Positions 8,081 through 21,528 of a stretch of 31,765 nucleotides of DNA are shown here, in pieces. The notes beneath the pieces were generated by a model that was not told the origin of the DNA, ran no database searches, and worked only from the letters and a program-made list of their open reading frames with translations. The stretch's first letter is position 1; each line of letters starts with the position of its first letter. The position numbers were made by a program, and so were the translations under genes. This stretch comes from a virus. The DNA lies in IMG/VR virus record IMGVR_UViG_3300005947_000002, positions 1 to 31,765 of that record; one strand, given 5' to 3'.

Positions 8081-8234
8081 CGCAAGCCCCTTGCTTCGAC
8101 ATCACGGGACGATAACCGGCCGAACCGTGAGCATCTGTGACAAGGGGCCTGCAGTGGAAGGAGGGCATGTGATGGCACGTAAACCACGCGACATCATATC
8201 AGTGTCTGTGCCGTACCCTCGTTTCATCGTGCTG

Positions 8235-8254
8235 CGACCTCCTAGATCGGTTGT
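8235..8254 (-). promoter_or_regulatory. Start-associated element, copy E (minus strand ACAACCGATCTAGGAGGTCG), upstream of the terS leader
   Basis: Variant of the 21-nt element. It lies 10 nt upstream of an ATG (8227) that opens a 41-codon ORF ending 21 nt before terS. Confidence 0.6.
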
Positions 8255-8287
8255 GCACTCTCATGTTATGGCACTGTGGAAGTTCGG

Positions 8288-8812
8288 TCAACTATGCGCG
8301 ACTGTTACTAATCCTGCAGGGAAGTTCAGATGGACACGGCTGCCGACCATGCCCTTGTTCGCGTACTCGCGGGCGATACGGTCGTGTTCCCTGGCTGCCG
8401 TCTCCGGGTCATTCACGTAGCGGCTGGTGACGACGTGCGTCTTATGTGTCCGGGGATCTGTCGTATTGACCACTGCCCGCCACTTGCCCTTGCCGACGGG
8501 CGCGATGCCAAAGTAGGTATGCCTTGGTGCCAATGGTTGCAGTGGGCGGACGTACTTCGTGTGGACCGAGGACAGGCGTTCGACCCTTGCCAGGACCGTC
8601 CCGTTCCATAAGCGGTACATGTCCCGGATACCATCTGTCGTCTGTAGAATGACCTTGCCCTCCATGATGCGCAGATCGGCGACGACATCCGCAAGTAGGA
8701 GGACGAATCCGAGGGTGGGGCCTGAGACTTCACACAACGTGCATGACGCGCTCAGGATGACGTATCCTCTAGCTGCGAGCGCTGCAGCCACATGCTCTCC
8801 AGTGTTTGTCAT
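8288..8812 (-). CDS. AP2-domain DNA-binding protein (174 aa)
   Basis: HTYFGIAPVGKGKWRAVV...YVNDPETAAREHDRIAREYANKGMVGSRVHLNFP fits the AP2/ERF-type pattern seen in phage and homing-endonuclease-associated proteins. The start codon is uncertain. Confidence 0.7.
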   Translation of the reverse strand: MTNTGEHVAAALAARGYVILSASCTLCEVSGPTLGFVLLLADVVADLRIMEGKVILQTTDGIRDMYRLWNGTVLARVERLSSVHTKYVRPLQPLAPRHTYFGIAPVGKGKWRAVVNTTDPRTHKTHVVTSRYVNDPETAAREHDRIAREYANKGMVGSRVHLNFPAGLVTVAHS

Positions 8813-9725
8813 CTATCGTTCCTTCCCAGCGCCAAACGCCAGCGTTCTCGTCGTGCCGTCTTTCTGTCCTTCGGCGCAGCACCTTTCGTTGGCCGGTTTT
8901 TTCCATGCGTGGCGCTGCGGTTACACTGCCCTGCCTTCTTATATTATGCGGATGGCCGAAACCCCCGCTCGAGGAACGTACTGATCTCCGTAAGACACCC
9001 GGCGTCGTAGAGGGTGCCACTCTGCGGGAAGAAGGCATAGCGCCGCCAGGGTGCGTACCACTTGATGACGCCCAAGATGGCAAGCCCCTGGAGGTTCCTC
9101 CCCGCCCATATGCGCGTCTTGCCAGAACTGCTATGCCCAAGCTCTTCAAAGCGCAGGTACACGGTGTCACCTCAGCCCCGACGTATTCCTTGCATTGAAC
9201 AGTGGGCTTCGGGCAACGAATGGGCCCGACACATTCCTTGCAGTCCTGTCCTACTCGTTCGCACCCGATACACAGACAGCAGTTGTGCATGCAGTCCTGT
9301 TCCTTGCCGTCGGGAGCGCGGAAGTCCGGACAGAGACCCATCTTGCCGCCGTGCTTCATACAATGCTCGAACCCCTTGCAGTCGTGACAGCTCTTGCCCT
9401 CGTTGGCACAGTCAAGGCAAAGACAGTCGGAGCAATCCCATAGGACTTTGCCTTCGGAGTACCACTTGCCGTTCAGCAGCAAGGCTATTGGCTTTTTCGT
9501 AGGCTTGATGGCAAGGTCAAGCAGCGCGTGTATCTCACATGGCAGGTGGATCTCTTCGAGGTGTGGCACATCCTTCAACGTGCACGGAACAAACCCATGC
9601 TGACAGCCGTTATAAACGACGCAGCGGGCGCCACGCAGAACACAGTAGTCCTCAACTATGACCTGCTCGATAGGTTCAGGAAACAGACTATCCACATACC
9701 CGGAATCAATCTGACGGGGTCTCAT
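8769..9725 (-). CDS. Cysteine-rich protein; credible coding is roughly 9163-9725, and the rest of the open frame overlaps two downstream genes
   Basis: ATGA overlap with the methyltransferase at 9722-9725. There are multiple CxxC clusters (CSDCLCLDC, CHDC, CMHNCCLCIGC, CKEC). After about residue 188 the translation becomes Arg/Ser/Gly-rich, and no in-frame stop occurs until 8769. Confidence 0.5.
   Translation of the reverse strand: MRPRQIDSGYVDSLFPEPIEQVIVEDYCVLRGARCVVYNGCQHGFVPCTLKDVPHLEEIHLPCEIHALLDLAIKPTKKPIALLLNGKWYSEGKVLWDCSDCLCLDCANEGKSCHDCKGFEHCMKHGGKMGLCPDFRAPDGKEQDCMHNCCLCIGCERVGQDCKECVGPIRCPKPTVQCKEYVGAEVTPCTCALKSLGIAVLARRAYGRGGTSRGLPSWASSSGTHPGGAMPSSRRVAPSTTPGVLRRSVRSSSGGFGHPHNIRRQGSVTAAPRMEKTGQRKVLRRRTERRHDENAGVWRWEGTIDDKHWRACGCSARS
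8944..9162 (-). CDS. Conserved-looking small hypothetical protein (72 aa)
   Basis: GTG start with GAGGTG 7 nt upstream. Hand-counted GC3 is about 70 percent, typical of coding here. The GKTRIW...LGVIKWYAPWRRYAFFP...CLTEISTFL pattern resembles small phage proteins I recall (unverified). Confidence 0.6.
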   Translation of the reverse strand: MYLRFEELGHSSSGKTRIWAGRNLQGLAILGVIKWYAPWRRYAFFPQSGTLYDAGCLTEISTFLERGFRPSA

Positions 9726-10700
9726 ACAGCAACCTCGTCGATTGCCTTGATGCTTCGCATGAGTTCCATGGCGACCTGCGGGACTATGGAGTTGCCGAGC
9801 GCTTTTAGCCTTTGTGTCCGATGTCCTGATTTGGACAGTTCAAGTCCGTCCAGCCTGACGGGTAGCCCATCATCCACTCGACAAAGGGCGGTTGCAGCTT
9901 CAACCCATCCTTGGTTCCAGTCGGGGAAGTCCCCATTCCATAAGTGATGACGTTCGGCAGCTGGCTCATGTGAGGCCGTTTCCTCTGCATATGCTTCGGC
10001 CCGTTTGCTCCCTTGTAATCTCTCGTCGCAGGCGTTGGCAGTAATGCGATCTGTGTCCCCAGATCGTCGCCCCCACTGCCTTTCCGGCTCGCTCTCGCAT
10101 AGTCCGGACCCGATGGAGACGCCTTCGGTGTCGCGACAAGCGACAATCCAGACTCTGTCTCTTTTGTGCGGCGCGCCGATAGCCGCAGCTGGAATAATGA
10201 GCGGTTGAACTTCGTAGCCCAATCGCTCCAAGTCAGTACACACCTGTTCGAGTGCCATGTTGACGATCCCAGGCACGTTTTCACCAATGACCCAATGGGG
10301 CCTTGTCTCGGATATAACCCTAAACATTGCAGGCCAGAGATAGCGGTCGTCTGCCCCCCCCCCGTCGTTTTCCTGCTTGACTGAACGGCTGGCAGGGGAA
10401 GCCACCGGTGAGGAGGTCAAGACGTCCGTCAAGCTCATCGAGTGTTTGCTGCCCTCTCTGTGCTGTGTTGACTTCATGGGATCCCAGCTGTCCGCTGCTC
10501 TCGGGGTCGGCAATAAGTCGTTCGGCTGATAGAGTTCGGATGTCATCATAGACGTTCACCCCCGGAAATCGCAATTTGAGCAGCGCCTGACAATACGGAT
10601 CGATCTCGCAGAAACCGACACAGTGGTAATCGGCACCCCACACTGTCTGAGCGGCAAGGGCAAAACCACCAATGCCAGAGAACAGGTCCAAGTGGTTCAT
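9722..10700 (-). pseudogene. DNA (cytosine-5)-methyltransferase, split over three reading frames (frameshifted, recoded or decaying)
   Basis: Frame A (10700 down to 10320) has DLFSGIGG (motif I), EIDPYC and GGFPCQPFSQAGKRRG (motif IV). Frame B (10549 down to 9722) has DDRYLWP, GENVPG (VI), APHKRDRVWIVA (VIII) and RLKALGNSIVPQ (X). Frame C (10287 down to 9805) has LVATPKASPSGPD, LLPTPATRDYKG and FVEWMMGYPSGWTDL (TRD / motif IX-like). Confidence 0.65.
10354..10363. repeat. Homopolymer C10 (G10 on the coding strand) at the motif IV frame break of the methyltransferase
   Basis: Counted directly in ctgCCCCCCCCCCgtcg. G9 or G12 would fuse frame A to frame B, giving GKRRGGADDRYLWP. Confidence 0.95.
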
Positions 10701-10900
10701 GGCGTCACCTCGAGCGTACCAAGGCAGCGGGCGAGACGGCTTGTCTGGATCGTGAACTGGTCGCCGTTCGTAGCCGTCAGCTCAACCCATTGCTGCACCC
10801 CGTTGCCGACGACGAGGCCCTTGAAGATACGGCCGTCGACCAGGACGAGCTCGACCTTCTGGCCGGGCACAAGTTTCTTGATGACACCGTTGTTGGTCAT
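10697..10900 (-). CDS. Hypothetical protein (67 aa)
   Basis: ATGA overlaps at both ends (10897-10900 and 10697-10700). High GC3. Confidence 0.55.
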   Translation of the reverse strand: MTNNGVIKKLVPGQKVELVLVDGRIFKGLVVGNGVQQWVELTATNGDQFTIQTSRLARCLGTLEVTP

Positions 10901-11067
10901 AGTGTCACCCACCACAAACGTGTCCGCTCAATGTTTTCTTCCTTCGTGAACGCGGTTTGGAACTTCTCGTCTATCTCCCGCTGTTCTGCCGTCCGCCGTT
11001 TCTTCTTCTCCGCTGTGACGGCTCTCCTTTGACTGTTACGGATTGCCCTGCTTTCTGCGGTCGTCAT
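10897..11067 (-). CDS. Hypothetical basic protein (56 aa)
   Basis: ATGA overlaps at 11064-11067 and 10897-10900. The track start at 11148 lies inside the upstream gene and was rejected. Confidence 0.5.
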   Translation of the reverse strand: MTTAESRAIRNSQRRAVTAEKKKRRTAEQREIDEKFQTAFTKEENIERTRLWWVTL

Positions 11068-11603
11068 GGGGTCACCCCGGGAATGTACAGCACTTCCACG
11101 CGCACGTTGTGACGCCTTCCCCAGTGTATTGCCGCGTCCGTTGACCATAGGAACACGTCGAGCTTGTTGCCATGGATGGCGCCCCCTGTGTCGATGACGG
11201 TACAGGGCTTGCCGTCGTTATAACCAGGGATGACGACCAGCGAGCCGAAGGGCAGCACGGACAAGTCTGCAGCAATGCCACCAACGTAGACGCGCTTACC
11301 GCTGGCTGTCACCAATGGAGACGCGTCACATTCGGCAACGGTCGGACTATAGGCCGTGATCTCCATGGAGAGAACCATGACGGGTTCTGAGTATCGCGTC
11401 GTTACCTTGTCGATGGGAAGGGCTACGGCTGCCAGCCGACGAGCGACCCGGAAGTTGACGACATCGCCCGCGCTTGCCCGTTTTGGTGACGCCGCCACGG
11501 CTGCAATGAGTAGGACAATGGCAATCGCCCAGATAACGACCAGCACGGCTACGAGGATATCAAACCAACTGATGGGTTCTGTCCCACGCGATGACCACTT
11601 CAT
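11064..11603 (-). CDS. 3D-domain (RlpA/MltA-like double-psi barrel) protein with an N-terminal transmembrane anchor (179 aa)
   Basis: TM segment ISWFDILVAVLVVIWAIAIVLLIAAVAA, then ITAYSPTVAECDASP...GGIAAD...LPFGS...VIDTGGAI.GNKLDVF, the 3D-domain pattern. ATGA overlap at 11600-11603. Confidence 0.7.
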   Translation of the reverse strand: MKWSSRGTEPISWFDILVAVLVVIWAIAIVLLIAAVAASPKRASAGDVVNFRVARRLAAVALPIDKVTTRYSEPVMVLSMEITAYSPTVAECDASPLVTASGKRVYVGGIAADLSVLPFGSLVVIPGYNDGKPCTVIDTGGAIHGNKLDVFLWSTDAAIHWGRRHNVRVEVLYIPGVTP

Positions 11604-12034
11604 GGTGCCACCTGCCGCTCGTGCCACCAGGCCTCGAGTTCTTCGACTTCACGGATGACCAGATAGATAGCACCGGCTGATTCGAAACGTACCTGCCATT
11701 CCTTCTGTGGATCACTCTGGTCGGTTGTCGGACGCTTCATTTCGATGCCAATGAGACGGCCCGTGCCAGGTTCGATCGCCAGGATGTCGGGCAGACCCTT
11801 GACGCCGTAGCGAATGAACGACCGTCCGATCGTGCCATTTTTCCGGGTGTATTCGTGCTTGGCTGCGCCGGTGTTCTGCCTCCAGAATACGAAATCTTGC
11901 ATAGCGAGCCAAGCGAGGACAGCTGCCTGTCGTGGGGTTTCCTTGCGGGTCTTGCGAGCGTACGCTTCCGGGTCAAGAACCTCGTTGGAACAATCTGATA
12001 CCGGCTTGCGCCGTCGTTCTGCTGCGATGCTCAT
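11600..12034 (-). CDS. VRR-NUC domain nuclease (PD-(D/E)xK; 144 aa)
   Basis: GLPDILAI...LIGIEMKRP core is typical of VRR-NUC. It is preceded by start-associated element copy D. Confidence 0.7.
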   Translation of the reverse strand: MSIAAERRRKPVSDCSNEVLDPEAYARKTRKETPRQAAVLAWLAMQDFVFWRQNTGAAKHEYTRKNGTIGRSFIRYGVKGLPDILAIEPGTGRLIGIEMKRPTTDQSDPQKEWQVRFESAGAIYLVIREVEELEAWWHERQVAP

Positions 12035-12037
12035 GTG

Positions 12038-12058
12038 CGATCCTCCTAGATCGATTGT
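12038..12058 (-). promoter_or_regulatory. Start-associated element, copy D (minus strand ACAATCGATCTAGGAGGATCG)
   Basis: Ends 3 nt before the ATG at 12034. Lies in a 40-nt gap after the upstream stop. Confidence 0.7.
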
Positions 12059-12074
12059 TGCGTACAGTCAGATG

Positions 12075-12302
12075 CTAGTGCTGGTGTTCTGCTACGGTGC
12101 CTCCTGCTGGTACCTCAAAGTCACGGCGGTCTTTCCATTCCGCCTTCTTCCCCTTGTTCCACGTTGATACCGGGGTCAAGTACCCCACAACCCTGGAATA
12201 TACGAGGCACCCGGTGCGTTTCTCTACGGGAACAGCGATGACCCCCTGGTAGAGAAGATCGTGGTTCTCGTTCTCTGTCCAACCGTCAGGAAGCTCAGTC
12301 AT
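12075..12302 (-). CDS. Stand-alone NrdD C-terminal (glycyl-radical-domain-like) mini-protein (75 aa)
   Basis: CLVYSRVVGYLTPVSTWNKGKKAEWKDRRDF matches the C-terminal glycyl-radical segment of class III ribonucleotide reductases (RVxGY...WNxGKxxExxxR) as I recall it. ATGA overlap at 12299-12302. Confidence 0.65.
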   Translation of the reverse strand: MTELPDGWTENENHDLLYQGVIAVPVEKRTGCLVYSRVVGYLTPVSTWNKGKKAEWKDRRDFEVPAGGTVAEHQH

Positions 12303-12568
12303 GGAGTCTCCTCAAACAAGTGGAAGACGTAGGGCGGTTGCTGAAACGTTCCGATATACTGCACATTGCGCCCTTCGGGAATCAATAAGCCGGTGCCGTA
12401 GAGCCTGAACGTGCGGGTCTCACACCTAGCGTCTACATCGGGAACCAGCGCCCACAAACACGGCGCTCCATTCTGTAATTGCAACGCAAGAATACTCGCG
12501 CCCTTCGGCATGTCTATGGCAAAACAGTCGACGCCTTCATCCAACTTGAACTTCCAGATCGCCCTCAT
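12299..12568 (-). CDS. Conserved phage hypothetical protein (89 aa)
   Basis: IWKFKL...MPKGASILALQLQNGAPCLWALV...YGTG...YIGTFQ...VFHLFE is a pattern I recall from a widespread phage DUF family. ATGA overlaps at both ends. Confidence 0.6.
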   Translation of the reverse strand: MRAIWKFKLDEGVDCFAIDMPKGASILALQLQNGAPCLWALVPDVDARCETRTFRLYGTGLLIPEGRNVQYIGTFQQPPYVFHLFEETP

Positions 12569-12693
12569 GGCTTCATCCTCCTTTGCTCTCGGTCAATGCT
12601 GATACCGATGTATAGTGCCATCCCTACCGCTCCGAATATCACTCCAGCAATGAAACAAAACCATCCAACGAAGTTCACCCAACCTTGGCTCAT
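12565..12693 (-). CDS. Small membrane peptide (42 aa), not in the ORF track
   Basis: ATG at 12693 overlaps the Gp37/68 stop (ATGA), and its own stop overlaps the next ATG (ATGA at 12565-12568). It has one hydrophobic helix, WVNFVGWFCFIAGVIFGAVGMALYIGI. Confidence 0.5.
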   Translation of the reverse strand: MSQGWVNFVGWFCFIAGVIFGAVGMALYIGISIDREQRRMKP

Positions 12694-13544
12694 TGTGACA
12701 CCCCCATTGCCTTCGTCTTCACTTCGTTCTCGAGTGTCTCAAGTTCTTTCTCAGACAACTTCGTTTGCAATCCCTTCGGATACCACTGGACAAGATCTTC
12801 GGGAATGATCTGCTTCAGGCTTTGCTTCAGGAAGACGGGAATGCCATGAGCAACGGCAGTGTCAACAAGACTCTCGACCCATGCTGTCTTTGGCTGCTGG
12901 TTCCTCGATCCTGGTCCCGTCATCGCGCCGATGACCAACCAGTCGATGGTATCTTCCCATTCCATGTTCTCGGTGATGTCCTCGAGTAGGGGTTCTGCAC
13001 TCGCCCAGGTATGCCAGCCTTCCTCATGGAGTGGCCACAGGTGATCGCGGAAGGTGCTAGTGTCGTTCTTCGTGTCGAAGGTCGCACCCAGCCACCAATT
13101 GGCGTGCGGCTTGATTTTCTCCTGGTAGATGAACAATTGCTCGTACCGCATCGGGTTCTTGGTCAAAAACAGATATTGGTGCTGAGGGTTCATCTCGCAC
13201 GTTGCCAGGACGGAGTAGATCCAGTCATTGGGTACCCAGTCACCGAACAGGTCACACATCGAACCCACGAAGATACGAGAGGGCTTCTGAACTCTCCCTG
13301 GTTCTGGCAGCCGATAACTGTGGAGCGTCGGAGCAAAGCCATACTTCCAGGAGCCGCCAGCACTTCTTGCCTTCCTGATCTCATGAAGGCCATTGCCCGG
13401 CTGGGTGCAATCGTCCCAGTTGTCGGTTTCCTTAGGAGTGAATCTCTGCGCCATTCGCCGGGCATAGCAGTAGTCACAACCATGTTGGCAGCCCGTAACA
13501 GGATTCCAGGAGTAGTCTGCCCAGTCGATGCGTGTGCGGTTCAT
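12690..13544 (-). CDS. Phage Gp37/Gp68-family (DUF5131, three-Cys, radical-SAM-like) protein (284 aa)
   Basis: The N-terminus RIDWADYSWNPVTGCQHGCDYCYARRMA is the family hallmark. Here the cysteines have canonical CX3CX2C spacing. Confidence 0.8.
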   Translation of the reverse strand: MNRTRIDWADYSWNPVTGCQHGCDYCYARRMAQRFTPKETDNWDDCTQPGNGLHEIRKARSAGGSWKYGFAPTLHSYRLPEPGRVQKPSRIFVGSMCDLFGDWVPNDWIYSVLATCEMNPQHQYLFLTKNPMRYEQLFIYQEKIKPHANWWLGATFDTKNDTSTFRDHLWPLHEEGWHTWASAEPLLEDITENMEWEDTIDWLVIGAMTGPGSRNQQPKTAWVESLVDTAVAHGIPVFLKQSLKQIIPEDLVQWYPKGLQTKLSEKELETLENEVKTKAMGVSQ

Positions 13545-15563: not shown

Positions 15564-15811
15564 GACTGCGCCTCGTAATCTGCGTCATTGTAACCATCGG
15601 CATAGATGAACTTCACATGAGGTTCAATGCGATCGCACAAGTATTGTTGGAAGTCTGCCATGACATCATCATCGATGTGGACCAGGACGCCACCGAGTCC
15701 ATCTTCCCTCTTCTCCAAGCAGTGAAGGATGTCAACCATGATGTTGCAGACCTCATGCGCTACGTCTGGTTCAAGGTGGCGCTGCCAGTCTTCGCCCGTT
15801 CCCGTCATCAT
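15560..15811 (-). CDS. Acidic hypothetical protein (83 aa)
   Basis: ATGA overlap with the antirepressor stop at 15808-15811. I rejected the 160-codon Arg/Pro/Gly-rich extension in the track ORF. Confidence 0.55.
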   Translation of the reverse strand: MMTGTGEDWQRHLEPDVAHEVCNIMVDILHCLEKREDGLGGVLVHIDDDVMADFQQYLCDRIEPHVKFIYADGYNDADYEAQS

Positions 15812-16578
15812 GACGCTACCCCCTGGACCAGCTGCCGGATGAACTCCACGCCCTTCTGGTAGACAACGGTCTTGAAGTACAGGTGCTGGTTTCCGTCCGG
15901 ATCTGTCCAGGACGTCTCGATGACCCGGAAGTACCCGGCGTCGACATAGCGCTGGTACGGGCGATTGTTGTCCTGGAGAATCGACTTCTTCCGGAGCAAG
16001 TCGAATAGGTTCGTCCTTCCCAGTCCAGGAACGGCCAGCGTCTTGGCGACCGTGCCGATGTCCGTGGTGTCGGAGCTCGAGGCTACGGTGTCGAAGAAGG
16101 CGACCTTCGGGGCCTCGAGCGCCAGCTGCTGCGTCTGTTGTTCGATCTGCTCTGCCTGCTTGGCTGCCAGGTATAACGCCTGGCTGAACGTCGTCGGGAC
16201 GGGCGCGATTGCCACAGAGTTGCTGGGTACAGACGGGATGGTGTAGGTGCCGGTGTGCTGAAGCGATGGCAGGACCGTACCCGCGATCCATTCACGGAGC
16301 GTGAAGGCCTTCTGCTTCCGGGAACGGACAATGAGCTTGAAGATCCCCGTGTCGGAGACGGCTGTCATATTCTGACGGCCGCCAGGGGTAGACATTGAAA
16401 GTGCTCCCTTTTCGTCGTCGTTCAGGCGCGCGACCTGTGTCTTCCAGTGAGGAATGCCAAGGACCTGCGCAACGTCCTGGGCGACGAACCAGATCTTGCC
16501 CTCGATGACCGACGTCCGCACCGGCTCCTTGCCGGCATACTGAAACGTCGTGATGCTGCTTTCAACTGTTGTTTCCAT
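15808..16578 (-). CDS. Antirepressor-type protein, Bro-N domain plus KilA-C domain (256 aa)
   Basis: N-terminal FQYAGKEPVRTSVIEGKIWFVAQDVAQVLG...FKLIVRSRKQKAFTLREWI (Bro-N) and C-terminal TVAKTLAV..LGRTNLFDLLRKKSIL...PYQRYVDAGYF (KilAC). Preceded by element copy C. Confidence 0.8.
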   Translation of the reverse strand: METTVESSITTFQYAGKEPVRTSVIEGKIWFVAQDVAQVLGIPHWKTQVARLNDDEKGALSMSTPGGRQNMTAVSDTGIFKLIVRSRKQKAFTLREWIAGTVLPSLQHTGTYTIPSVPSNSVAIAPVPTTFSQALYLAAKQAEQIEQQTQQLALEAPKVAFFDTVASSSDTTDIGTVAKTLAVPGLGRTNLFDLLRKKSILQDNNRPYQRYVDAGYFRVIETSWTDPDGNQHLYFKTVVYQKGVEFIRQLVQGVAS

Positions 16579-16580
16579 TG

Positions 16581-16601
16581 CGATCCTCCTAGATCGATTG
16601 T
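16581..16601 (-). promoter_or_regulatory. Start-associated element, copy C (minus strand ACAATCGATCTAGGAGGATCG)
   Basis: Ends 2 nt before the ATG at 16578. Lies in a 33-nt gap after the DnaC-like stop. Confidence 0.7.
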
Positions 16602-16611
16602 GACTACTGTT

Positions 16612-17313
16612 CTAACGCATAGATGGGCCTGTGTAGGTAATCCACTCGCATTGTGCCCGCCACCGGTCGGCGATACAGGCCAGTTCGCCGCCTTTGTACC
16701 CAGGCACGACAATTGTTTGTCCGTTCTCACCCTTGACCTCGCGCGTATCCCAGCCATCAGGTGGCACGTTGCTCGTTATGAAGACCGGACGCCTCTTCTG
16801 ATACCGGCTGTTTGCGATTTCATAGAAGGCTGCCACGGCCGCTTTGCCCCCAGCCTCATGCCCGAGATCGTCCAGGACCAGGACCTTCGCCGCCTTGGCA
16901 TCCCGGACAACGGCGCGCGCCTCTTCGCCCTGCTTGCCATAGATACAGTCCAGGACGCTGAACAGGTGTGGTGCGGTCCAGATTGAGAGGGCATGTTCAG
17001 GGAGAGGTAGATCGCCTTTTTCCAGCAGGTCCTGCCAGCAGCGCCACTTGAGGAACTCGAGCGCGCAGTGGACGGCAGACGTCGTCTTTCCGGTACCCTT
17101 CGGCCCCATGAACACGATGCCCGTTTTCTGCACGGTAGCGAACTGCAACGCCGCCTCGAGCTGAGAACGCGCGCGGCATAACCGTGGATCCCAGATGAGA
17201 CACTCATTTCCGAAGTCGTCACTCAGCCGGATGCCGCGGACGATATACGACATCCACTGGGCGAACCGTTCGCGGTACAGCCCGATCATCTCTTCCGAAA
17301 ATGTCCCAGCCAT
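16612..17313 (-). CDS. DnaC/IstB-like AAA+ helicase loader (233 aa)
   Basis: Walker A GPKGTGKTT and Walker B VLVLDDLG. TGATG junction with the initiator gene. Confidence 0.8.
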   Translation of the reverse strand: MAGTFSEEMIGLYRERFAQWMSYIVRGIRLSDDFGNECLIWDPRLCRARSQLEAALQFATVQKTGIVFMGPKGTGKTTSAVHCALEFLKWRCWQDLLEKGDLPLPEHALSIWTAPHLFSVLDCIYGKQGEEARAVVRDAKAAKVLVLDDLGHEAGGKAAVAAFYEIANSRYQKRRPVFITSNVPPDGWDTREVKGENGQTIVVPGYKGGELACIADRWRAQCEWITYTGPSMR

Positions 17314-17882
17314 CAGCGTTCCTCATCCTTGTCCGGGTTGAAGGTTTCTTGATGGTACCGGTCCTTGTGCGGGTCATAGGTGCCGGAAGAGATACCAGCC
17401 CAGGTCTTGTCCTCGAGGGTCTGTGGCTTGGTTTGGTCTTGGGTTTTGGAACCATTTAAGGAAGGCCCTCTTGTTGTTGTAGTACCTATTGTTATTGTAG
17501 GTACCGATTTCGGTAACGGTTTCGTTACGGATTTCGGTAACGTTACGGATTTCGGTAACTCCTGCCACTCTCCATAATGCTTGTTAAATTCATACCTGCA
17601 AAGACGAGTGTTACCGATTTCGGTAAAGGTTTTGATGATGATGTTCCGTTCTGCCAGGCGCTTGAGCGTGTTGGCGACATGCGTTTTGTCAATTCCGGTC
17701 CCGTCGACGAACTGTGCCAGACTGATCAGGTCAGATTTTTTGCTCCACCCGTAGGTCTTGCGGAGAAGGAAATGCAAAACGCGCCCCTCGTACCCGCTAA
17801 GCTGGGTGCGTGCAAGCGCGTCCATAATTGGATTGGCAACCGGCGTATAGCCGTCAGTGAGCTGTGGGTTGACCTTGCTCAT
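17313..17882 (-). CDS. Replication initiator, phage O-like N-terminal winged-helix domain (189 aa)
   Basis: GYTPVANPIMDALARTQLSGYEGRVLHFLLRKTYGWSKKSDLISLAQFVDGTGIDKTHVANTLKRLAERNII fits the phage replication protein O N-terminal pattern. The iterons encode its repeated LPKSVT peptide. Confidence 0.75.
   Translation of the reverse strand: MSKVNPQLTDGYTPVANPIMDALARTQLSGYEGRVLHFLLRKTYGWSKKSDLISLAQFVDGTGIDKTHVANTLKRLAERNIIIKTFTEIGNTRLCRYEFNKHYGEWQELPKSVTLPKSVTKPLPKSVPTITIGTTTTRGPSLNGSKTQDQTKPQTLEDKTWAGISSGTYDPHKDRYHQETFNPDKDEER
17501..17626. repeat. Four 16-bp palindromic iterons, TTAC(C/G)GATTTCGGTAA, inside the initiator gene (putative origin)
   Basis: Copies at 17501-17516 (first base g), 17525-17540, 17543-17558 and 17611-17626. 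Each is TTACCGA-tt-TCGGTAA. AT-rich ttgttgttgtagtacctattgttattgtag adjoins at 17471-17500. Confidence 0.75.
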
Positions 17883-17933
17883 GACGTTAGCTGTCGGAGG
17901 GATGCTGCTGAGGTAGTGCTGTCTCGATGCATG

Positions 17934-18101
17934 TCATCGTCGCGATCCCTTTCCACTGTCCAAATGTAAAGAAGAGGGACGGGGCCGGGATCGTGGAAGC
18001 GGCGGCAGGTTCTCCTGCCTCAGAACGGTAGCTGACCGTCTGCCGCATCCCTCTATGACCATCGTACAGGAATTCGAAACTGTGTCAATACCCTTCGTCA
18101 T
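17934..18101 (-). CDS. Possible small ORF (55 aa) behind a degenerate start-associated element
   Basis: ATG at 18101 follows GCGATCTGGGAGGATATT. GC3 is only about 50 percent and the C-terminal half is Arg/Pro/Ser-rich, so the region may be non-coding. Confidence 0.25.
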   Translation of the reverse strand: MTKGIDTVSNSCTMVIEGCGRRSATVLRQENLPPLPRSRPRPSSLHLDSGKGSRR

Positions 18102-18102
18102 A

Positions 18103-18165
18103 ATATCCTCCCAGATCGCATAAAGAGCCATATATGCCAGGGCGCCAACCGATCTAGGAGGATCA
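18103..18165. promoter_or_regulatory. Inverted pair of start-associated elements (about 14-bp arms, one mismatch, about 30-nt spacer) upstream of the replication genes
   Basis: 18105-18118 atcctcccagatcg faces 18150-18163 cgatctaggaggat. The right-hand copy points away from all genes and has no start codon after it. It is bracketed by GCCAGGG (18137-18143) and CCCTGGC (18180-18186). Confidence 0.6.
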
Positions 18166-18192
18166 ACTAAGGTATAACACCCTGGCGGATTC

Positions 18193-18220
18193 ACCTTAGA
18201 CAACACCGGCATTTTGTCAA
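18193..18220 (-). promoter_or_regulatory. Candidate sigma70-type promoter, TTGACA-16 nt-TAAGGT, reading into the replication module
   Basis: Perfect -35 hexamer (plus-strand tgtcaa, 18215-18220) and a weak -10 (18193-18198). The host sigma specificity is unknown. Confidence 0.3.
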
Positions 18221-18402
18221 GCATCTGCCTGTTCACGGATCAGCACTGGGCGCTGGCAGTATCTGCGGTACAACTGCCACAGCTCTTCCGTCTCCTGGAC
18301 GCGCCCGCTGCGACGAGCTGCCGGGGCACGCTGCCTGATAACCGCTTCGAGTGCTGCAGGCGACCGCCACATGCGGCCGAGTTCAGCGTATGTAATCAAC
18401 AT
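18217..18402 (-). CDS. Hypothetical protein (61 aa)
   Basis: AGGTGA lies 4 nt upstream of the ATG. Hand-counted GC3 is about 66 percent. Confidence 0.5.
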   Translation of the reverse strand: MLITYAELGRMWRSPAALEAVIRQRAPAARRSGRVQETEELWQLYRRYCQRPVLIREQADA

Positions 18403-18406
18403 ATCA

Positions 18407-19168
18407 TCACCTGGCTACTCCCATACCAAACCGCTCTTCGGGGGTGTGGGCGCCTTTTGAGCTGTTGCAATGACCGCACGCTGGTACCACGTTGTCCTTC
18501 GAGTGCTTGCCACCCTTGGATAGCGGGCGCACATGGTCAAGGGTCAGGCGCTCCGTTTTCTTGCCACAATATGCACAGTGGCCATTGTACAGGGCGAGTA
18601 CGTCATGCCATTGAGCCAGCGTGAGCAGTTCGTCGGTCGGGGTGTTGGCGTACTTGAGAGAGCGGCGCTTAGCCTTATTCAAAGCGCAGGCCTCTAGGTT
18701 CGCTTTCTGCCATTTAGCGAACCCCTCGCTGCATTTCTCTGGGTTGGCTTTGCGGTATTTACTGGCATACTCGAGGTGTTTCTTCAGGTGCGCTTTATAG
18801 TAGTTAGCGGCTTTCTCCCGGTTGGCTTTATACCGTTTAGCGTCATATTCGCGGCGTTTCTCTAGATTCGCTTTCCGCCATTTAGCGTGTTGCTCGCGGA
18901 CTTTCTCTGGGTTGGCCTTACGATATCGGGCAGATTTCTGTTTCCTTTTTTCTGGGTTCGCTTTGCGCCATGCGGCACCAGACAAACGGTGTTGCTCGCG
19001 GACTTTCTCTGGGTTGGCTTTCTGCCATGCGACAACCTGCTCGCGCTTAGCATCATATGCGCATTCCTTGCAGTATTTCGAATTGCCGGTTGTCGGCTGG
19101 TATTCCTTCCCGCACTTCTGACAGGCATTCGTTTTGTAGGTCATGGCACGCCGGACACTTGAGGTCAT
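18407..19168 (-). CDS. HNH endonuclease with an N-terminal zinc ribbon and repeated (W/Y)xKANPEK motifs (253 aa)
   Basis: C-terminal CAYCG...LTLDHVRPLSKGG.HSKDNVVPACGHCNSSKG is the HNH motif. CQKCG...CKEC lies at the N-terminus. A 30-nt exact repeat occurs at 18887-18916 and 18989-19018. Confidence 0.85.
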   Translation of the reverse strand: MTSSVRRAMTYKTNACQKCGKEYQPTTGNSKYCKECAYDAKREQVVAWQKANPEKVREQHRLSGAAWRKANPEKRKQKSARYRKANPEKVREQHAKWRKANLEKRREYDAKRYKANREKAANYYKAHLKKHLEYASKYRKANPEKCSEGFAKWQKANLEACALNKAKRRSLKYANTPTDELLTLAQWHDVLALYNGHCAYCGKKTERLTLDHVRPLSKGGKHSKDNVVPACGHCNSSKGAHTPEERFGMGVAR

Positions 19169-19172
19169 GGCG

Positions 19173-19403
19173 TCACCGTGTCCCGGTAGCCACCTGGTCC
19201 GATGGCGTTGTGGTCCGGTGGCCAGTGGGCGCGATGGTCAACCGTTCACGGTCGCGCAAGCACATATCATAGAGCCCTCTCAGGTCACCAATGTCGTCGA
19301 GCAGGACCTTGTTCTCACGGCGCAGGCGGGCGACCTCCACGCCCGCCGCCATGATCTGCGCCTCTTCGAGACGTGACAGGATCCTATGCCCGAACCAGCG
19401 CAC
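19173..19403 (-). CDS. Hypothetical coiled-coil protein (76 aa; start uncertain)
   Basis: High GC3. GTG at 19403 lies after AGGTG. An internal ATG (residue 18) is an alternative start. Confidence 0.5.
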   Translation of the reverse strand: MRWFGHRILSRLEEAQIMAAGVEVARLRRENKVLLDDIGDLRGLYDMCLRDRERLTIAPTGHRTTTPSDQVATGTR

Positions 19404-19575
19404 GGGACACCTGGTGGGTCACCATATCGGCCAGCTGCTGAGCCTGGTCAAGAGTAAGGTCTACGATGAAGGCGTTCGTTGAGATCTTGTACGGTCCCCA
19501 GGCACACCCGCGCACGTCCTGGACCGGCAGTTCGCCTACCTTGATTCCGGCCACATGCAATGCGAGGATCTTCAT
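19384..19575 (-). CDS. Hypothetical protein (63 aa)
   Basis: ATGA overlap at 19572-19575 sets the start at MKILALHVAG. I rejected the track extension. Confidence 0.55.
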   Translation of the reverse strand: MKILALHVAGIKVGELPVQDVRGCAWGPYKISTNAFIVDLTLDQAQQLADMVTHQVSRALVRA

Positions 19576-20633
19576 TCGAACCTCTTCCCGAACTCCTGGG
19601 GGTCCGCGGGGGCATATCCGTCCTGCAGCTGCCGGATGAGACATGCCGCGTAGTCGGCGTCGATGGTCAGCACCTTCCCGTCGATGGTCACAGTCGGCGG
19701 GTCTGCATGGACATTGATACTCTGGATGCTCAGTTGCGCGAAGTCCTCGGTCGTCTTGCCGGCTGCGAGCCCTTCGATCGCCGCCAGCTGGTCACGTTGC
19801 ACCGGAGCTCCTAGAGTCTTGGGTGTTTCTTTGGGAAGTTCCTCACCAATGCCATCAACGACGTCCTCGAGTTCGTCCGGCCTGCTCTCGTCCGGTTCCG
19901 GCACGGCCACAGTCCCGCCATCTTCGCCAGCCTTCAACGCAGGCGCCAGGGACGTGGGCAGCTTCGCCAGATCTGCGATCGTCCCCTCATACGCCAGGTG
20001 CATGTAGCGGATCCGCTTCTTGACCGACCCCTTGACCGGATCCTGACGGTCGACTTCCCGTTCCATGAGGCTCAGCTTCAGGGGCACGAAGGCCAGACGC
20101 CCGTTGAGAGCCGCCTTCACGACACCGATGTCATTGAGCAGCTCGCGCAGTCCATTCCAGCTGTGGCTATCGATCTGGTACGTCCCGATGCCGGGTACGT
20201 TCAGCACGTTGACCATGAGGTTCAGCGTCGGCGCGCAGCCCTTGGGCTTCACTTCGCCGTTGCCGTCAATGTACTGATTGAACTTGCAGAGCTTCGGCCC
20301 TGGGCATTCGAGCTCGATGCGTGTGCCGGTCTTGAGGTCCAGGCGCTTCGCCATCAGACCGTCACCCTTGCACAAAGGAGCGATCGTGGACGTGCCGTAC
20401 AGCTTGTAGAAATGCGGCAGGATCACGTCCACGTCGTTGCTGAGGAACATGACAGAGAGTTCCTTCGGCTGCTCGCCGTAGACCGCCCTGACCTCGTCCG
20501 GACAGACGAAGTAATCGGTCGCCTGCGGATAACCCTTCTTGTCTTTGACGTCGCGAAACTTCCGGACGCCCAAGTGTATTTTCCCAAGACGGGGCATATA
20601 GCGCTGCCCGTCTGTAATCCCTGTGATTGGCAT
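19572..20633 (-). CDS. Conserved phage early protein of unknown function (353 aa; replication/recombination-module context)
   Basis: MPRLGKIHLGVRK....GYPQATDYFVCPDEVRAVYGEQPKELSVMF...LCKGDG... resembles a widespread phage family that I cannot name. Preceded by element copy B. Confidence 0.7.
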   Translation of the reverse strand: MPITGITDGQRYMPRLGKIHLGVRKFRDVKDKKGYPQATDYFVCPDEVRAVYGEQPKELSVMFLSNDVDVILPHFYKLYGTSTIAPLCKGDGLMAKRLDLKTGTRIELECPGPKLCKFNQYIDGNGEVKPKGCAPTLNLMVNVLNVPGIGTYQIDSHSWNGLRELLNDIGVVKAALNGRLAFVPLKLSLMEREVDRQDPVKGSVKKRIRYMHLAYEGTIADLAKLPTSLAPALKAGEDGGTVAVPEPDESRPDELEDVVDGIGEELPKETPKTLGAPVQRDQLAAIEGLAAGKTTEDFAQLSIQSINVHADPPTVTIDGKVLTIDADYAACLIRQLQDGYAPADPQEFGKRFE

Positions 20634-20634
20634 A

Positions 20635-20655
20635 CGATCCTCCTAGATCGATTGT
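20635..20655 (-). promoter_or_regulatory. Start-associated element, copy B (minus strand ACAATCGATCTAGGAGGATCG)
   Basis: Ends 1-2 nt before the ATG at 20633. Lies in a 44-nt gap after the HTH gene stop. Confidence 0.7.
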
Positions 20656-20663
20656 TGGTGGTG

Positions 20664-21275
20664 CTACTTCTTCGCTGTTACTGTGTCAGCTGTTCCAAGG
20701 TCAGTCCCGTGAGCTTCTTCAGCTTCATCGCATTGGTCAGGTTCGGGCGCGACATTCCGCCCGCCCACGACCAGGCTGTCTGATAACTCACCCCCATGTT
20801 CCTGGCCAGCCAGGCCGTCGACTTGTGCTGCTTCTGCAACCACAGTGCCAACGGTCTCAATTCCTGCTTCTGTTCCATTCTGCTCCTTTCCCGGCTCATC
20901 GTGCCGGACGACCTCACTCAGATACTGCGCCCATGCGCCGCCCCTCGTTCCACTTCCTGCGCCGTGCTGGCCGCGTCGGTCGATCATGTGAAAAAGTCCG
21001 TCGAAGCGTGAACGCCGGCAGCGCAGTGTTTGGTCACGCGGCTTGCCTTCCTTCCAGTCGTCGCCCGTCAATACAAGATCGACCGCGCGGTAGTAGTTCT
21101 GATGCTTCACTTCACCCATGTGGTAGAACAGGACGGTGATCGGTTCAGCCGAGTGCGCCGTCACTCCCACGACGTAGCCAAATTCTCCATCCTCGCTGGA
21201 CCCGTCGACGATCTTCACTTCCTGGTGCAGGTACCGACTTCGCAACTCCATGATGTCTTCGCGTTCGTCTTCCAT
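20664..21275 (-). CDS. First early ORF (203 codons open); credible coding is about 20880-21275, and the rest overlaps the HTH gene
   Basis: ATG at 21275 lies directly behind element copy A. The N-terminal 130 residues look protein-like. There is no in-frame stop until 20664, and the frame loses its GC3 bias after about 20880. Confidence 0.45.
   Translation of the reverse strand: MEDEREDIMELRSRYLHQEVKIVDGSSEDGEFGYVVGVTAHSAEPITVLFYHMGEVKHQNYYRAVDLVLTGDDWKEGKPRDQTLRCRRSRFDGLFHMIDRRGQHGAGSGTRGGAWAQYLSEVVRHDEPGKEQNGTEAGIETVGTVVAEAAQVDGLAGQEHGGELSDSLVVGGRNVAPEPDQCDEAEEAHGTDLGTADTVTAKK
20678..20878 (-). CDS. Cro/YdaS-like helix-turn-helix regulator (66 aa)
   Basis: ATG at 20878 lies 4 nt after AAGGAG. 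KSTAWLARNMGVSYQTAWSWAGG is an HTH. GC3 is about 85 percent in this frame versus about 45 percent in the overlapping 203-aa frame (hand count on 20701-20760). Confidence 0.7.
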   Translation of the reverse strand: MEQKQELRPLALWLQKQHKSTAWLARNMGVSYQTAWSWAGGMSRPNLTNAMKLKKLTGLTLEQLTQ

Positions 21276-21276
21276 A

Positions 21277-21297
21277 CGATCCTCCTAGATCGGTTGT
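21277..21297 (-). promoter_or_regulatory. Start-associated element, copy A (minus strand ACAACCGATCTAGGAGGATCG)
   Basis: Ends 1-2 nt before the ATG at 21275, at the head of the leftward early operon. Confidence 0.7.
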
Positions 21298-21319
21298 GCT
21301 GATGCTATATTATCTGCTG

Positions 21320-21482: not shown

Positions 21483-21528
21483 AACTGTGATACACTTGCA
21501 GCCGGTCTAGGAGACATAGGAGGTACAT

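Follow-up and report, generated by a model that had tools for sequence, protein, structure and literature searches.

Short hairpins that overlap the translational start region are well known as operators in phages, and include the MS2/R17 coat-protein operator, Mu Com-mom and the targets of T4 RegA and RegB; CsrA-type sites have GGA in the loop. The cluster K mycobacteriophages carry a start-associated sequence (SAS), GGGATAGGAGCCC (Pope et al. 2011, PMC3203893; Adephagia study, PMC11373665).

Here we describe an element repeated before gene starts in an uncultured 31.7-kb phage, of which the whole stretch of 31,765 nt was analysed (the window). With a translational operator, an RNA-processing site and a DNA operator as candidate roles, the evidence leans towards a role at the level of the mRNA. 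We favour, at about even confidence for and against, a SAS-like reading in which the element would be an mRNA-level translation-initiation hairpin, either an operator or an insulated ribosome-binding site. That the element folds in vivo, acts on translation and is read by a trans-acting factor is what we infer from its sequence and conservation.

Copies of the element and their genomic setting

The exact sequence ACAAYCGATCTAGGAGGATCG occurs four times on the minus strand and a variant lies in the terS leader, a set for which the chance expectation is 0 (dinucleotide shuffles gave 0 matches). These five copies are as the first-pass annotation had described them, including the 1-3 nt that separate the exact copies from their start codons and the 10 nt between the variant and ATG 8227. 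Its picture of one copy at the head of each of five modules is incomplete, as the phage carries at least eight element copies or derivatives, of which one is inverted and contributes to a long helix. Absent from that annotation are the degenerate forward copy, the inverted copy, the degenerate par-leader copy and the element-like sequence at 22814-22824. The copies and associated sites are as follows.

21277-21297, minus strand: copy 1, type 1 (ACAACCGATCTAGGAGGATCG), 1 nt before ATG 21275 of the first early gene (20664-21275)
20635-20655, minus strand: copy 2, 1 nt before ATG 20633 of a Gp3-like gene (19572-20633)
16581-16601, minus strand: copy 3, 2 nt before ATG 16578 of a Bro-N/KilAC antirepressor gene (15808-16578)
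12038-12058, minus strand: copy 4, 3 nt before ATG 12034 of a VRR-NUC gene (11600-12034)
8234-8254, minus strand: copy 5, variant ACAACCGATCTAGGAGGTCGC, before ATG 8227 of a 41-aa ORF (8102-8227), followed by terS (7505-8080)
18104-18118, minus strand: degenerate forward copy CGATCTGGGAGGATA, before ATG 18100; 3' arm of the long helix
18145-18165, plus strand: inverted copy CCAACCGATCTAGGAGGATCA, not followed by a start codon
18104-18164, minus strand: predicted 14-bp helix of anti-element and degenerate element, loop of about 33 nt
21504-21523, plus strand: degenerate copy GGTCTAGGAGA (alone 21504-21514, in the par-operon leader), then another SD (TAGGAGG), both in the leader of a 71-aa ORF (21529-21744) followed by ParA
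22814-22824, minus strand: conserved element-like sequence GACCAAGGAGG
21307-21312, minus strand: TAATAT, a -10-like hexamer 9 nt ahead of copy 1, in the presumed early promoter
8263-8291, minus strand: TTGACC-17-TAACAT, a late promoter-like site 8 nt ahead of copy 5
21491-21496, plus strand: -10-like TACACT in the par leader, 7 nt upstream of the degenerate copy GGTCTAGGAGA
18061-18088, minus strand: promoter-like site TTGACA-16-TACGAT (10/12 match), directly downstream of the long helix

Copy 2 begins 8 nt beyond the TAG that ends the upstream gene and is identical in its L053 orthologue. The terS-leader copy reads ACAACCGATCTAGGAGG-TCGC, with the A of GGAGGATCG deleted and GGAGG 10 nt from ATG 8227, and the same one-base deletion is kept at the terS site of four relatives (L057, L058, L059, L060).

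Gaps of 30, 33, 40 and 60 nt precede the genes headed by the copies first described, most other genes overlap their upstream neighbour by 4 or 1 nt, and a bare GGAGG is used by few, much as the first-pass annotation had it. The element is found only at these 30-60 nt breaks in the overlapping gene string and right after promoter-like sites; every cistron without translational coupling has a copy, including the first genes behind the early and late promoters. Upstream of their own early-gene copy, by 8 nt, relatives carry TATACT or TATTGT, and the late site is kept as TTGAC-N17-TAnnAT in 5 relatives (alignment A2). The promoter-like site at 18061-18088 precedes the replication genes RepO (17313-17882) and DnaC-like (16612-17313), and its TTGAC is invariant in 8 genomes covering all three sequence types described below (alignment A4).

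Three sequence types and the predicted hairpin

The element is present at orthologous sites in 12 related uncultured phage contigs, where it takes three forms: type T1, CGAUCU-AGGA-GGAUCG; type T2, UGAG(A)CCU-UGG-AGGCUCA; and type T3, GGACU-GGGG-AGUCU. Each well-sampled genome has mostly one type, usually with one inverted copy, and two types occur together in the chimeric genomes L056, L001 and L072. In L056 the par leader contains two occurrences of the type-2-like GACCTTGGAAC, in keeping with the type 2 copy that this genome has at its early promoter. Across the 13 genomes the SD of nearly all forward copies stands 4-10 nt, mostly 5-7, from the start codon, which is ATG in all but three cases. 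At the VRR-NUC site 16 of 19 element columns are invariant compared with 4/26 in the 30 columns upstream (7 genomes, alignment A1), a contrast that indicates purifying selection, and at the antirepressor site 16 of 21 columns are invariant (5 genomes, alignment A3). Candidatus Cryosericum is the likely host. A plain GGAGG is found in a Cryosericum contig and in an unrelated phage whose lysin is 75% identical, and the 16-mer core has at most one copy in any bacterial genome; the element is not a host-wide signal. An earlier suggestion had drawn attention to its GATC and CTAG sites. A methylation role for them fails, since T2 and T3 contain neither site and these are thus not what the element is for; the genome as a whole also shows no depletion of GATC, with 176 sites where 163 are expected.

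Nearly all copies are predicted to fold as a 5-7 bp hairpin around the SD. The first-pass annotation had likewise proposed that the inverted arms pair, and comparison of the relatives upholds the hairpin, albeit with a different geometry: in place of a 5-bp stem and 6-nt loop, the predicted T1 fold (-5.3 kcal/mol) has an AGGA tetraloop on a 6-bp stem whose closing pair is U.G. The one-base-deletion form of copy 5 folds as CGAUCU-AGG-AGGUCG. T1, one-base-deletion T1, T2 and most T3 copies all form a stem enclosing the SD, with energies between -3.6 and -9 kcal/mol. The hairpin is thus stable across types but weak, at -4 to -7 kcal/mol. In native context most T1 copies have a base-pair probability of 0.8-1.0 (copy 1, 0.87); that of copy 2 is 1.00. 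A complementary 3' arm is missing in 4/11 T3 copies and in one T2 copy.

Alignment of T1 with T3 gave 90% of cells paired, with 4/6 stem pairs changed on both sides, and its covariation score was reached by 0/500 shuffles and collapsed in slid controls, figures that represent effectively three lineages and a structure derived from the same sequences. Compensation is also seen in the outermost pair at L058 1620 (C-G to U-A), in T2 (U-A versus C-G, L069 versus L001) and in stem extensions of the terS copies of L058 and L059. The reasoning that the idea would fall if relatives kept the SD and lost its flanks can now be set against these data: the relatives keep more than the SD, with the flanks either retained or both arms replaced in a compensatory way. 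This retention of a hairpin with altered letters argues that the element is a real control element. G.U wobbles inside the stems and long helices pair on the sense strand only, which favours RNA over duplex DNA.

Within a type the 5' half and SD are conserved base for base, and the 3' arm is less conserved. Such conservation exceeds the needs of a stem, so that either the sequence itself is read by something or the copies are homogenised. Homogenisation is central to an explanation that we consider improbable, in which the element would be a good ribosome-binding site whose long identity stems from gene conversion among copies and co-infecting phages, serving as a crossover point for module swaps and a landing site for HNH homing-endonuclease genes, with the strong SD as its sole regulatory role. 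In several comparisons homology with relatives does stop where the element begins on its 5' side; 11072-12058, for example, matches L057, but L057 and L054 have a different gene upstream. In L057 (twice), L001 and L069 an HNH gene upstream of a copy stops 10-30 nt short of it, and both the uniformity of type within genomes and the block-wise chimeras are expected from gene conversion and recombination. The shuffling of modules by way of repeated regulatory motifs has a precedent in the T4-type PeSL cassettes (PMC2839356, PMC4122927). However, 21 nt is short for homologous recombination and many comparisons cross the element unbroken (for example 15808-18372 against L056). Conversion alone leaves unexplained a stem in each type, a terS-site deletion fixed in five phages, and the inverted copy with its conserved helix.

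The inverted copy and the long helix

On the minus-strand mRNA the inverted copy is the exact complement of the element, that is, an anti-SD sequence. Inverted copies occur in five other relatives (L056, L058, L059, L069, L074), with a weaker match in L072, and such a copy pairs with a forward one to give a helix of 9-20 bp, immediately ahead of the conserved promoter-like site. The helix at 18104-18164 (minus strand; MFE -48.3 kcal/mol, z -2.4) is predicted to bury the SD of the ORF starting at 18100. Equivalent helices form in L056, L059, L069, L072 and L074, each from its own sequence type and several with U.G wobbles, and the longest, in L056, is of about 20 bp; L058 has complementary arms, but the long helix is absent from its MFE fold. 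The arms follow genome type (GGAGGAU/AUCCUCC, GGAGAA/UUCUCC, GACCUUGGAGG/CCUCCAAGGUC and GACUGGGG/CCCCAGUC). The inverted copy also retains the prefix CCAACC, which cannot pair with its local partner, a retention that the local helix alone leaves unexplained.

In a processing and stability cassette, the long helix would serve as an RNase III-type site. An endoribonuclease would cut the polycistronic mRNA at or just upstream of the copies (prefix ACAAY), so that each module transcript would begin with the short leader of the primary early and late transcripts, shielded from 5' decay by a 5'-proximal hairpin and a bound ribosome. The predicted early and late 5' ends lie 1-3 nt upstream of the prefix (-10 hexamer, 8-9 nt, ACAAY), and processed internal copies would thus mimic primary 5' ends; the L056 helix also counts in its favour. 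In phages T7 and SP82, conserved intergenic hairpins are where early polycistronic mRNA is processed, and Gram-positive bacteria have SD-like 5' stabilisers, both of which support this idea. Against it, the small hairpin is far below RNase III length, and the prefix varies between types and shows little conservation in L058 and L059. We regard a processing site as very unlikely.

Conservation of the inverted copy also counts in favour of a stoperator-like DNA operator, in our judgement an unlikely explanation: the inverted copy is conserved as well as the forward ones, including the prefix unneeded for RNA pairing. A phage repressor would bind the 21-bp site as duplex DNA, blocking promoter clearance at the early, late and par promoters and elongation at internal sites, and so silencing the whole genome of a plasmid-like prophage (ParA is present and no integrase was found). 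Three promoter-like sites have a copy at about +6 to +25, with the inverted pair upstream of a fourth, and all forward copies are co-oriented with transcription in short intergenic gaps, like L5 stoperators (PMC9283540, PMC6550527). Mostly one type per genome is expected of sites co-evolving with a repressor, and the par-leader type equals the early-promoter type within the same genome. Yet a DNA site needs no SD, whereas here an SD is always in the site, 5-7 nt from ATG, even where space is ample. The stems allow G.U and not the equivalent A.C, compensatory changes maintain them, and chimeric genomes tolerate two types. No repressor is recognisable, searches of the small proteins against Pfam, PHROGs and PDB being empty. 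The long helix lies 1, 15 or 56 nt from the downstream -35, a variation that misfits a phased DNA-bound activator.

The translation-initiation hairpin that we favour would be a self-contained cassette, with a strong SD ((A/G)GGAGG) 5-7 nt from ATG inside a 5-7 bp hairpin that presents the first bases of the SD in a 3-4 nt loop and holds its last two G's in the stem. It would be used where stop-start overlap cannot supply ribosomes from an upstream gene, namely at the first gene after the early, late and par promoters and at three internal module junctions; at promoter-proximal copies about 6-8 nt would separate the transcript 5' end from the start of the hairpin. By fixing the local fold of the ribosome-binding site, the hairpin would keep changeable neighbour genes from altering it, and the module-first genes, sharing one operator, could have ribosome loading set or throttled jointly. 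One inverted copy may have been recruited as an anti-SD strand, its long helix with the degenerate forward copy placed at the end of the immediate-early block, directly before the replication-gene promoter, where it would serve as a barrier, processing site or SD trap. No candidate trans-acting factor is tied to element type; a 67-aa Sm-like protein does not co-vary with it.

Likeness to described systems

Phage hairpin operators and CsrA sites resemble the element as short hairpins that take in a phage gene's SD or start codon, with GGA in a 3-4 nt loop, and, as with RegA, RegB and CsrA, one factor could govern several cistrons. They differ in being single sites or a loose consensus rather than a 21-nt repeat, and no homologues of coat protein, Com, RegA, RegB or CsrA were found in the window. 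The T4-type PeSL (promoter-early plus stem-loop) sequences are likewise repeated motifs that border variable gene blocks at recombination junctions (PMC2839356, PMC4122927), but comprise a terminator stem-loop and early promoter, not a ribosome-binding site; a terminator-promoter layout is seen here only at 18061-18164, in the long helix and downstream promoter.

Cluster A stoperators (L5, Bxb1, TipsytheTRex) share with the element many short asymmetric sites in short intergenic gaps genome-wide, an orientation that follows transcription, a genome-specific consensus and one copy at the early promoter (PMC9283540, PMC6550527). In contrast to the element, they are DNA sites for an immunity repressor, without an SD, a fixed distance to start codons or stem covariation, and no equivalent repressor was identified here.

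The likeness to cluster K SAS, first pointed out from the window alone, holds feature by feature. Both are short asymmetric repeats with an SD core between inverted outer arms (GGG...CCC in SAS, GAUC...GAUC here), a few nt upstream of starts that are overwhelmingly ATG, mainly at non-structural genes from different families. Both have a single orientation plus one inverted copy away from gene starts, a subset right behind sigma-70/SigA-like promoters (ESAS in cluster K; early, late and par here), and no counterpart in the host genome. The differences are also clear. The sequences are unrelated, at 21 nt here and 13 nt in SAS, as are the phage lineage and likely host phylum, and copies number 5-8 here and 11-19 in SAS. 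Here one copy heads the late (terS) operon, the arms show compensatory variation in three types where SAS arms are essentially invariant, and an inverted and a forward copy make a conserved long helix beside a promoter; 17-bp inverted repeats of the ESAS kind were not seen. Together these comparisons suggest that the element is most like the cluster K SAS, and would be a similar but distinct element.

Placement and specificity of the element

The two ends of the window (1-70 and 31696-31765) are identical 70-nt direct repeats, and the whole represents a complete, circular or circularly permuted genome of 31,695 bp. Almost all of its genes lie on the minus strand, with ParA on the plus strand, and they run in the order early promoter region, first early gene, Gp3-like gene, HNH gene, replication genes (RepO, with iterons, and DnaC-like), Bro-N/KilAC antirepressor, VRR-NUC, methyltransferase, terS, terL, portal, head, tail and lysis genes; no integrase was seen among them. 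The four iterons (17502-17632; 21 nt, TACCGATTTCGGTAACGGTTT, partly palindromic) are inside the RepO-like gene and, by analogy with lambda, probably form the replication origin. Two overlapping ORFs, 10320-10700 and 9722-10549, make up the C5 cytosine methyltransferase gene (9722-10700, minus strand), a split that suggests a frameshift or a sequencing error. In the tail region, six tandem repeats of about 135 nt (26067-26896) encode a Kelch-like protein (…VDAYNTSLVRSTPTxLSxAR…LAATTVGNYALFGGG), probably the receptor-binding protein.

This genome is unlike that of any cultured phage: none of 50,697 phage records gave a DNA match, and terL identity to them does not exceed 36%. A chromosomal gene in a Candidatus Cryosericum MAG (L067, GCA_054635355.1) encodes a homologue of the endolysin, with 60% identity over the full length; it is a DUF1906/Rv2525c-like glycoside hydrolase inside a cell-envelope polysaccharide cluster. 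As this homologue sits on a contig of equal G+C (57.6% against 57.7%), Candidatus Cryosericum is the likely host group; the lysin homologue is the only host clue.

The minus-strand copies reported by the first-pass annotation, four identical and one variant in the terS leader, were confirmed: ACAAYCGATCTAGGAGGATCG has four exact minus-strand matches in the window, and dinucleotide shuffles gave none. The five start-linked copies therefore stand, but the count was incomplete, having missed an inverted copy, two degenerate copies and one element-like site.

Copies of the element in the window
8234-8254, minus strand: fifth copy, terS leader, ACAACCGATCTAGGAGG-TCGC, one A deleted
12038-12058, minus strand: exact copy, ends 3 nt before ATG 12034
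16581-16601, minus strand: exact copy, ends 2 nt before ATG 16578
18104-18118, minus strand: degenerate forward copy CGATCTGGGAGGATA, precedes the ATG at 18100
18145-18165, plus strand: inverted copy CCAACCGATCTAGGAGGATCA, no start codon after it
20635-20655, minus strand: exact copy, ends 1 nt before ATG 20633
21277-21297, minus strand: exact copy, ends 1 nt before ATG 21275
21504-21514, plus strand: degenerate copy GGTCTAGGAGA, leader of the plus-strand 71-aa ORF and ParA
22814-22824, minus strand: conserved element-like GACCAAGGAGG; over 22812-22824, GACCAAGGAGGAT

The contrast drawn in that annotation between gaps at the copies and overlaps elsewhere was upheld by a gene-start census. An overlap of 4 or 1 nt with the preceding gene, together with a weak Shine-Dalgarno (SD) sequence or none, is found at most genes, whereas the gaps ahead of element-bearing genes are 30, 33, 40 and 60 nt. 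The spacer from SD to ATG is 5-7 nt, and 10 nt at terS. Every forward copy holds an SD whose distance to the start codon is fixed; that codon is ATG after all window forward copies and nearly all copies in relatives; the exceptions are a GTG (L059 9118) and two TTG codons (L075; L069 12170).

These relatives, 12 contigs designated by L numbers, were gathered by exact-pattern scans and by look-ups via terL and a 67-aa protein. In them the element occupies orthologous places: the terS leader, a position 3' of the early promoter, and positions ahead of the genes for the Gp3-like protein, the antirepressor and VRR-NUC; an inverted and a degenerate copy, as a pair, precede the replication genes. 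The element is an island of conservation: across seven genomes, invariance at the VRR-NUC site extends to 16 of 19 element columns, against 4/26 among the 30 columns upstream. Two more distant terL relatives (L062, L063) proved to be unrelated phages without the element.

An exact scan of 185,579 genomes with the 16-mer core returned 48 unrelated single hits and no multi-copy genome, and a host-wide motif was rejected. Plain GGAGG is found in host (Cryosericum) genes and in an unrelated phage with a 75%-identical lysin. Since the scan hits are single and unrelated and both host and unrelated phage use plain GGAGG, the flanks appear specific to the phage family rather than a host translation signal. 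Extended SD pairing was not supported either: host genes use the bare motif, and only (A/G)GGAGG pairs with the 16S 3' tail, the flanks staying unpaired with this general bacterial tail, which may not be the host's. Rfam gave no family above the gathering threshold anywhere in the window, and no tRNA, tmRNA or known RNA family was found there.

Three sequence types and a predicted hairpin

The element occurs as three sequence types with GAYCU...GGAG in common.

Sequence types of the element
T1: ACAAYCGATCT(A/G)GGAGGATC(G/A/T); the window, L057, L058, L059, L060
T2: (T/C)GAGACCTTGGAGG(C/T)TC(A/G); all L069 sites including the inverted copy, some of L056, L001, L061
T3: gcRGACTRGGGAG(TCT); L072-L075, with an inverted match also in L074 and L072

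A methylation or restriction role for the GATC and CTAG sites was ruled out, as GATC is not depleted in the genome (176 observed, 163 expected) and both sites are absent from T2 and T3.

Folds predicted with ViennaRNA place T1 in CGAUCU-AGGA-GGAUCG (-5.3 kcal/mol), with base-pair probabilities of 0.8-1.0 for most copies in their native context, T2 in UGAG(A)CCU-UGG-AGGCUCA, with a bulged A, and T3 in GGACU-GGGG-AGUCU. The terS variant is predicted to fold as CGAUCU-AGG-AGGUCG, its one-base deletion shifting the register with six pairs kept. The arm covariation that the first-pass annotation had advised looking for in relatives was found. When T1 and T3 hairpins are aligned without gaps, pairing holds in 90% of cells and both arms compensate, four of the six pairs changing on both sides; the covariation score was matched by none of 500 shuffles, in a test whose independent lineages number only about three. 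The pairing collapsed once partners were slid by one column, and swap and random-flank tests agree with compensatory pairing. The outer pair changes from C-G to U-A at L058 1620, T2 compensates between L069 (U-A) and L001 (C-G), the terS copies of L058 and L059 gain extra pairs, and the native 3' flanks of most copies rank in the best 1-12% of all 4-mers. Together, this natural variation, with three compensating types, a fixed one-base-deletion form and a covarying helix at the inverted copy, favours a reading in which an RNA hairpin encloses the ribosome-binding site.

We put the most weight, an even chance, on the element being an mRNA-level translation-initiation hairpin, which would act both as an insulated, standard ribosome-loading site and as the common operator of every translationally uncoupled cistron. 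This reading is favoured by the fixed link to SD and ATG, by the covariation of the stem, G.U pairs included, by the fixation of the one-base-deletion form at terS and by host genes that lack the flanks. Two features count against a hairpin: the complementary 3' arm is missing in four of 11 T3 copies and in one T2 copy, and the 5' half is invariant base for base within a type, more than a stem alone requires. A DNA operator, a linker and an RNA processing cassette, weighed below, each account for some features that the hairpin leaves unexplained.

The types are distributed in a concerted manner. All copies are T2 in L069 and T3 in L073 and L074; at all four orthologous forward copies and at the inverted copy alike, loop position 12 is A for the window clade and G for L058 and L059. 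L056, L001 and L072 are block-wise chimeras of types, and the par leader of L056 holds T2-like repeats, like the T2 copy at the early promoter of the same genome. Such concerted types require that the copies either undergo gene conversion or co-evolve with a trans-acting reader, and the existence of chimeric genomes implies that types are at least tolerated together.

It is unlikely, on our estimate, that the hairpins go further and serve as a phage-private address label for translation, in which a phage-encoded factor would read the type-specific 5' arm and loop and switch module-first genes together. T1, T2 and T3 would then be mutually incompatible specificities, like immunity groups but at ribosome loading. 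One candidate reader is a 67-aa protein (10697-10900, minus strand) restricted to the family, with only 23 homologues among 5.8 billion proteins; the other would be an RNA segment with the element's complement, better matched to distant copies than to its local partner. The 67-aa protein is 66-87% identical to the window's copy in all relatives. Its AF2 model (pLDDT 88.9) has Foldseek matches mostly to Sm/LSm proteins (TM about 0.5, E 0.05-0.25), and it is possibly a phage Sm-like RNA-binding protein; across relatives its sequence did not track element type. Regulator searches (Pfam, PHROGs, PDB sequence) gave no hits for the first early protein, the 71-aa and 86-aa par-operon proteins, or the 61-aa and 174-aa proteins. 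A dedicated reader, protein or RNA, would represent a new layer of coordinated phage gene control and a source of portable, insulated ribosome-binding-site parts. The natural variants, with three types and compensating arms, are ready-made mutant and compensatory-mutant sets for tests of mechanism.

Separately, the upstream/-35 sequence of the late promoter recurs on the plus strand at 22744-23112 (AGTAACAGTCGCTGAAAGTTGCAC-16-TATTGT), where it points rightwards. A transcript from it would carry AUCCUCCUUGGUC, complementary to the minus-strand GACCAAGGAGGAT, and would end at a terminator-like GCCCCG...CGGGGC with a U-run at about 23066-23112; a 48-aa membrane ORF (23151-23296, plus strand) lies beyond. 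The middle of this region varies between relatives, and Rfam found nothing at E<=1 in 22700-23200. The region may encode a small RNA with an anti-SD segment, or may just be a leader.

Promoters, the inverted copy and neighbouring genes

The late copy lies 8 nt 3' of a conserved TTGACC-17-TAACAT, the early copy 9 nt 3' of TAATAT (8 nt 3' of the matching hexamer in relatives) and the par-leader copy 7 nt 3' of TACACT. With -10-like hexamers 7-9 nt upstream, the 5' ends of primary transcripts would fall 1-3 nt ahead of the element. At the internal copies, three in all, which lie 8-16 nt past the upstream stop codon, a promoter scan and manual inspection found no conserved -35/-10. That every copy is part of a promoter was therefore rejected, such a hexamer being limited to the copies at the early, late and par promoters. 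A 174-aa protein (8288-8812, minus strand), encoded directly ahead of the late promoter, has a C-terminal AP2-like motif by eye (YFGI…GKWRA…LNFP) and no significant Pfam hit; a protein so placed could be an activator of late genes or belong to a homing nuclease.

The window, L056, L058, L059, L069 and L074 have one inverted copy each, with a weaker match in L072. Only that of L059 has a start codon within 12 nt, which opens a 6-codon ORF; a plus-strand gene or antisense promoter was rejected, with no start codon and no promoter conserved across relatives. Read on the mRNA, the inverted copy gives the element's complement, matching distant forward copies of the window at 19 of 21 positions, a better fit than to its local partner. 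That partner, the degenerate forward copy, lies about 30 nt downstream, and the two are predicted to pair in a long helix of 14 bp (-48.3 kcal/mol, z -2.4). Counterparts of 9-20 bp are predicted in L056, L059, L069, L072 and L074, each in its own genome's type and with U.G wobbles, and L059 has a double change, GGAGAA/UUCUCC; in L058 the arms are complementary, yet the MFE fold lacks the long helix. On the translation-initiation reading, a single recruitment of the element sequence, in inverted orientation, would have supplied an anti-SD strand here.

An invariant promoter-like TTGAC(A)-16/17-TAnnnT always lies 3' of the long helix, ahead of the replication genes (window 18088-18061), and the distance from helix to -35 is 1, 15 or 56 nt. 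Because this spacing varies, an RNA element ending the upstream transcript, as a barrier, processing site or SD trap, suits the helix better than a phased DNA-bound activator. That all copies form a stoperator-like DNA operator, against which the fixed link of each forward copy to SD and ATG speaks, we consider unlikely, and that they form an RNA processing or stability cassette very unlikely.

Between the promoter-like site and RepO, a conserved GC-rich segment (17887-18060, minus strand; columns 190-260 of A4, the alignment of this locus) has nested GCGGCAG...CTGCCGC and GGCAGG/CCTGCC, with compensatory changes in L058, and may be a structured leader or origin-associated RNA. Small ORFs at 18100-17934 and 18048-17887 lie in two frames; as L058 has a single 71-aa ORF there, the window may carry a frameshift.

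Free-standing HNH endonuclease genes end 10-30 nt upstream of copies in L057 (6210-6850, 14063-14650), L001 (8288-8560) and L069 (360-992), and both L057 genes have an identical 3' end (…GAATGGAACGCGAAGAGACTGA…); homing may be targeted to the element or to its edge. HNH insertions elsewhere, among them that of the window (18407-19168), do not adjoin a copy. Within the window's HNH gene, five 45-nt tandem repeats (18692-18971) encode a repeated ...KANPEK... motif that falls within the protein's N-terminal half. We regard it as quite unlikely that the element is solely a recombination or homing linker with no regulatory role; the compensating arms point instead to the translation-initiation hairpin.

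Comparison with known systems

Stoperators of cluster A phages (PMC9283540, PMC6550527) are duplex DNA sites, bound by an immunity repressor that stops elongation, and their position is free of SD and start codon. In contrast, the element's forward copies are always SD-linked, and Pfam, PHROGs and PDB searches with the window proteins listed above found no repressor. The PeSL of T4-type phages (PMC2839356, PMC4122927) combines a terminator stem-loop with an early promoter and flanks variable ORFs, whereas internal element copies have no promoter-like site; in the window, only 18061-18164 has a comparable helix-then-promoter layout. Both systems resemble the element in genome-wide distribution and a link to mosaic junctions, and both lack its SD coupling.

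The first-pass annotation had likened the element to the start-associated sequences (SAS) of cluster K mycobacteriophages, known since 2011 (PMC3203893) and still described as of undefined or unknown role in 2024-2025 papers. The likeness holds for layout and fails for sequence, host and phage lineage. SAS lie 3-9 bp upstream of the start codon and include an SD core, as the element, its SD included, ends 1-3 nt before ATG; both have inverted arms (around AGGAG in SAS), a strong ATG preference, a single orientation with one inverted copy off gene starts, and a subset near promoters (SigA-like for SAS). The 13-bp SAS consensus GGGATAGGAGCCC, however, differs from ACAAYCGATCTAGGAGGATCG at more than 2 positions, with only TAGGAG in common, and no repeats like the ESAS, inverted repeats found at a subset of SAS (PMC11373665), were found in the window. 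SAS belong to Mycobacterium phages of cluster K, the element to an unrelated lineage with Candidatus Cryosericum as likely host, and comparative hairpin evidence is available for the element but not for its cluster K counterparts. Judged by sequence, host and lineage, the element is outside the SAS family, an independent variant of the same design; its family would represent a separate invention of the SAS layout in phages of a barely studied candidate phylum.
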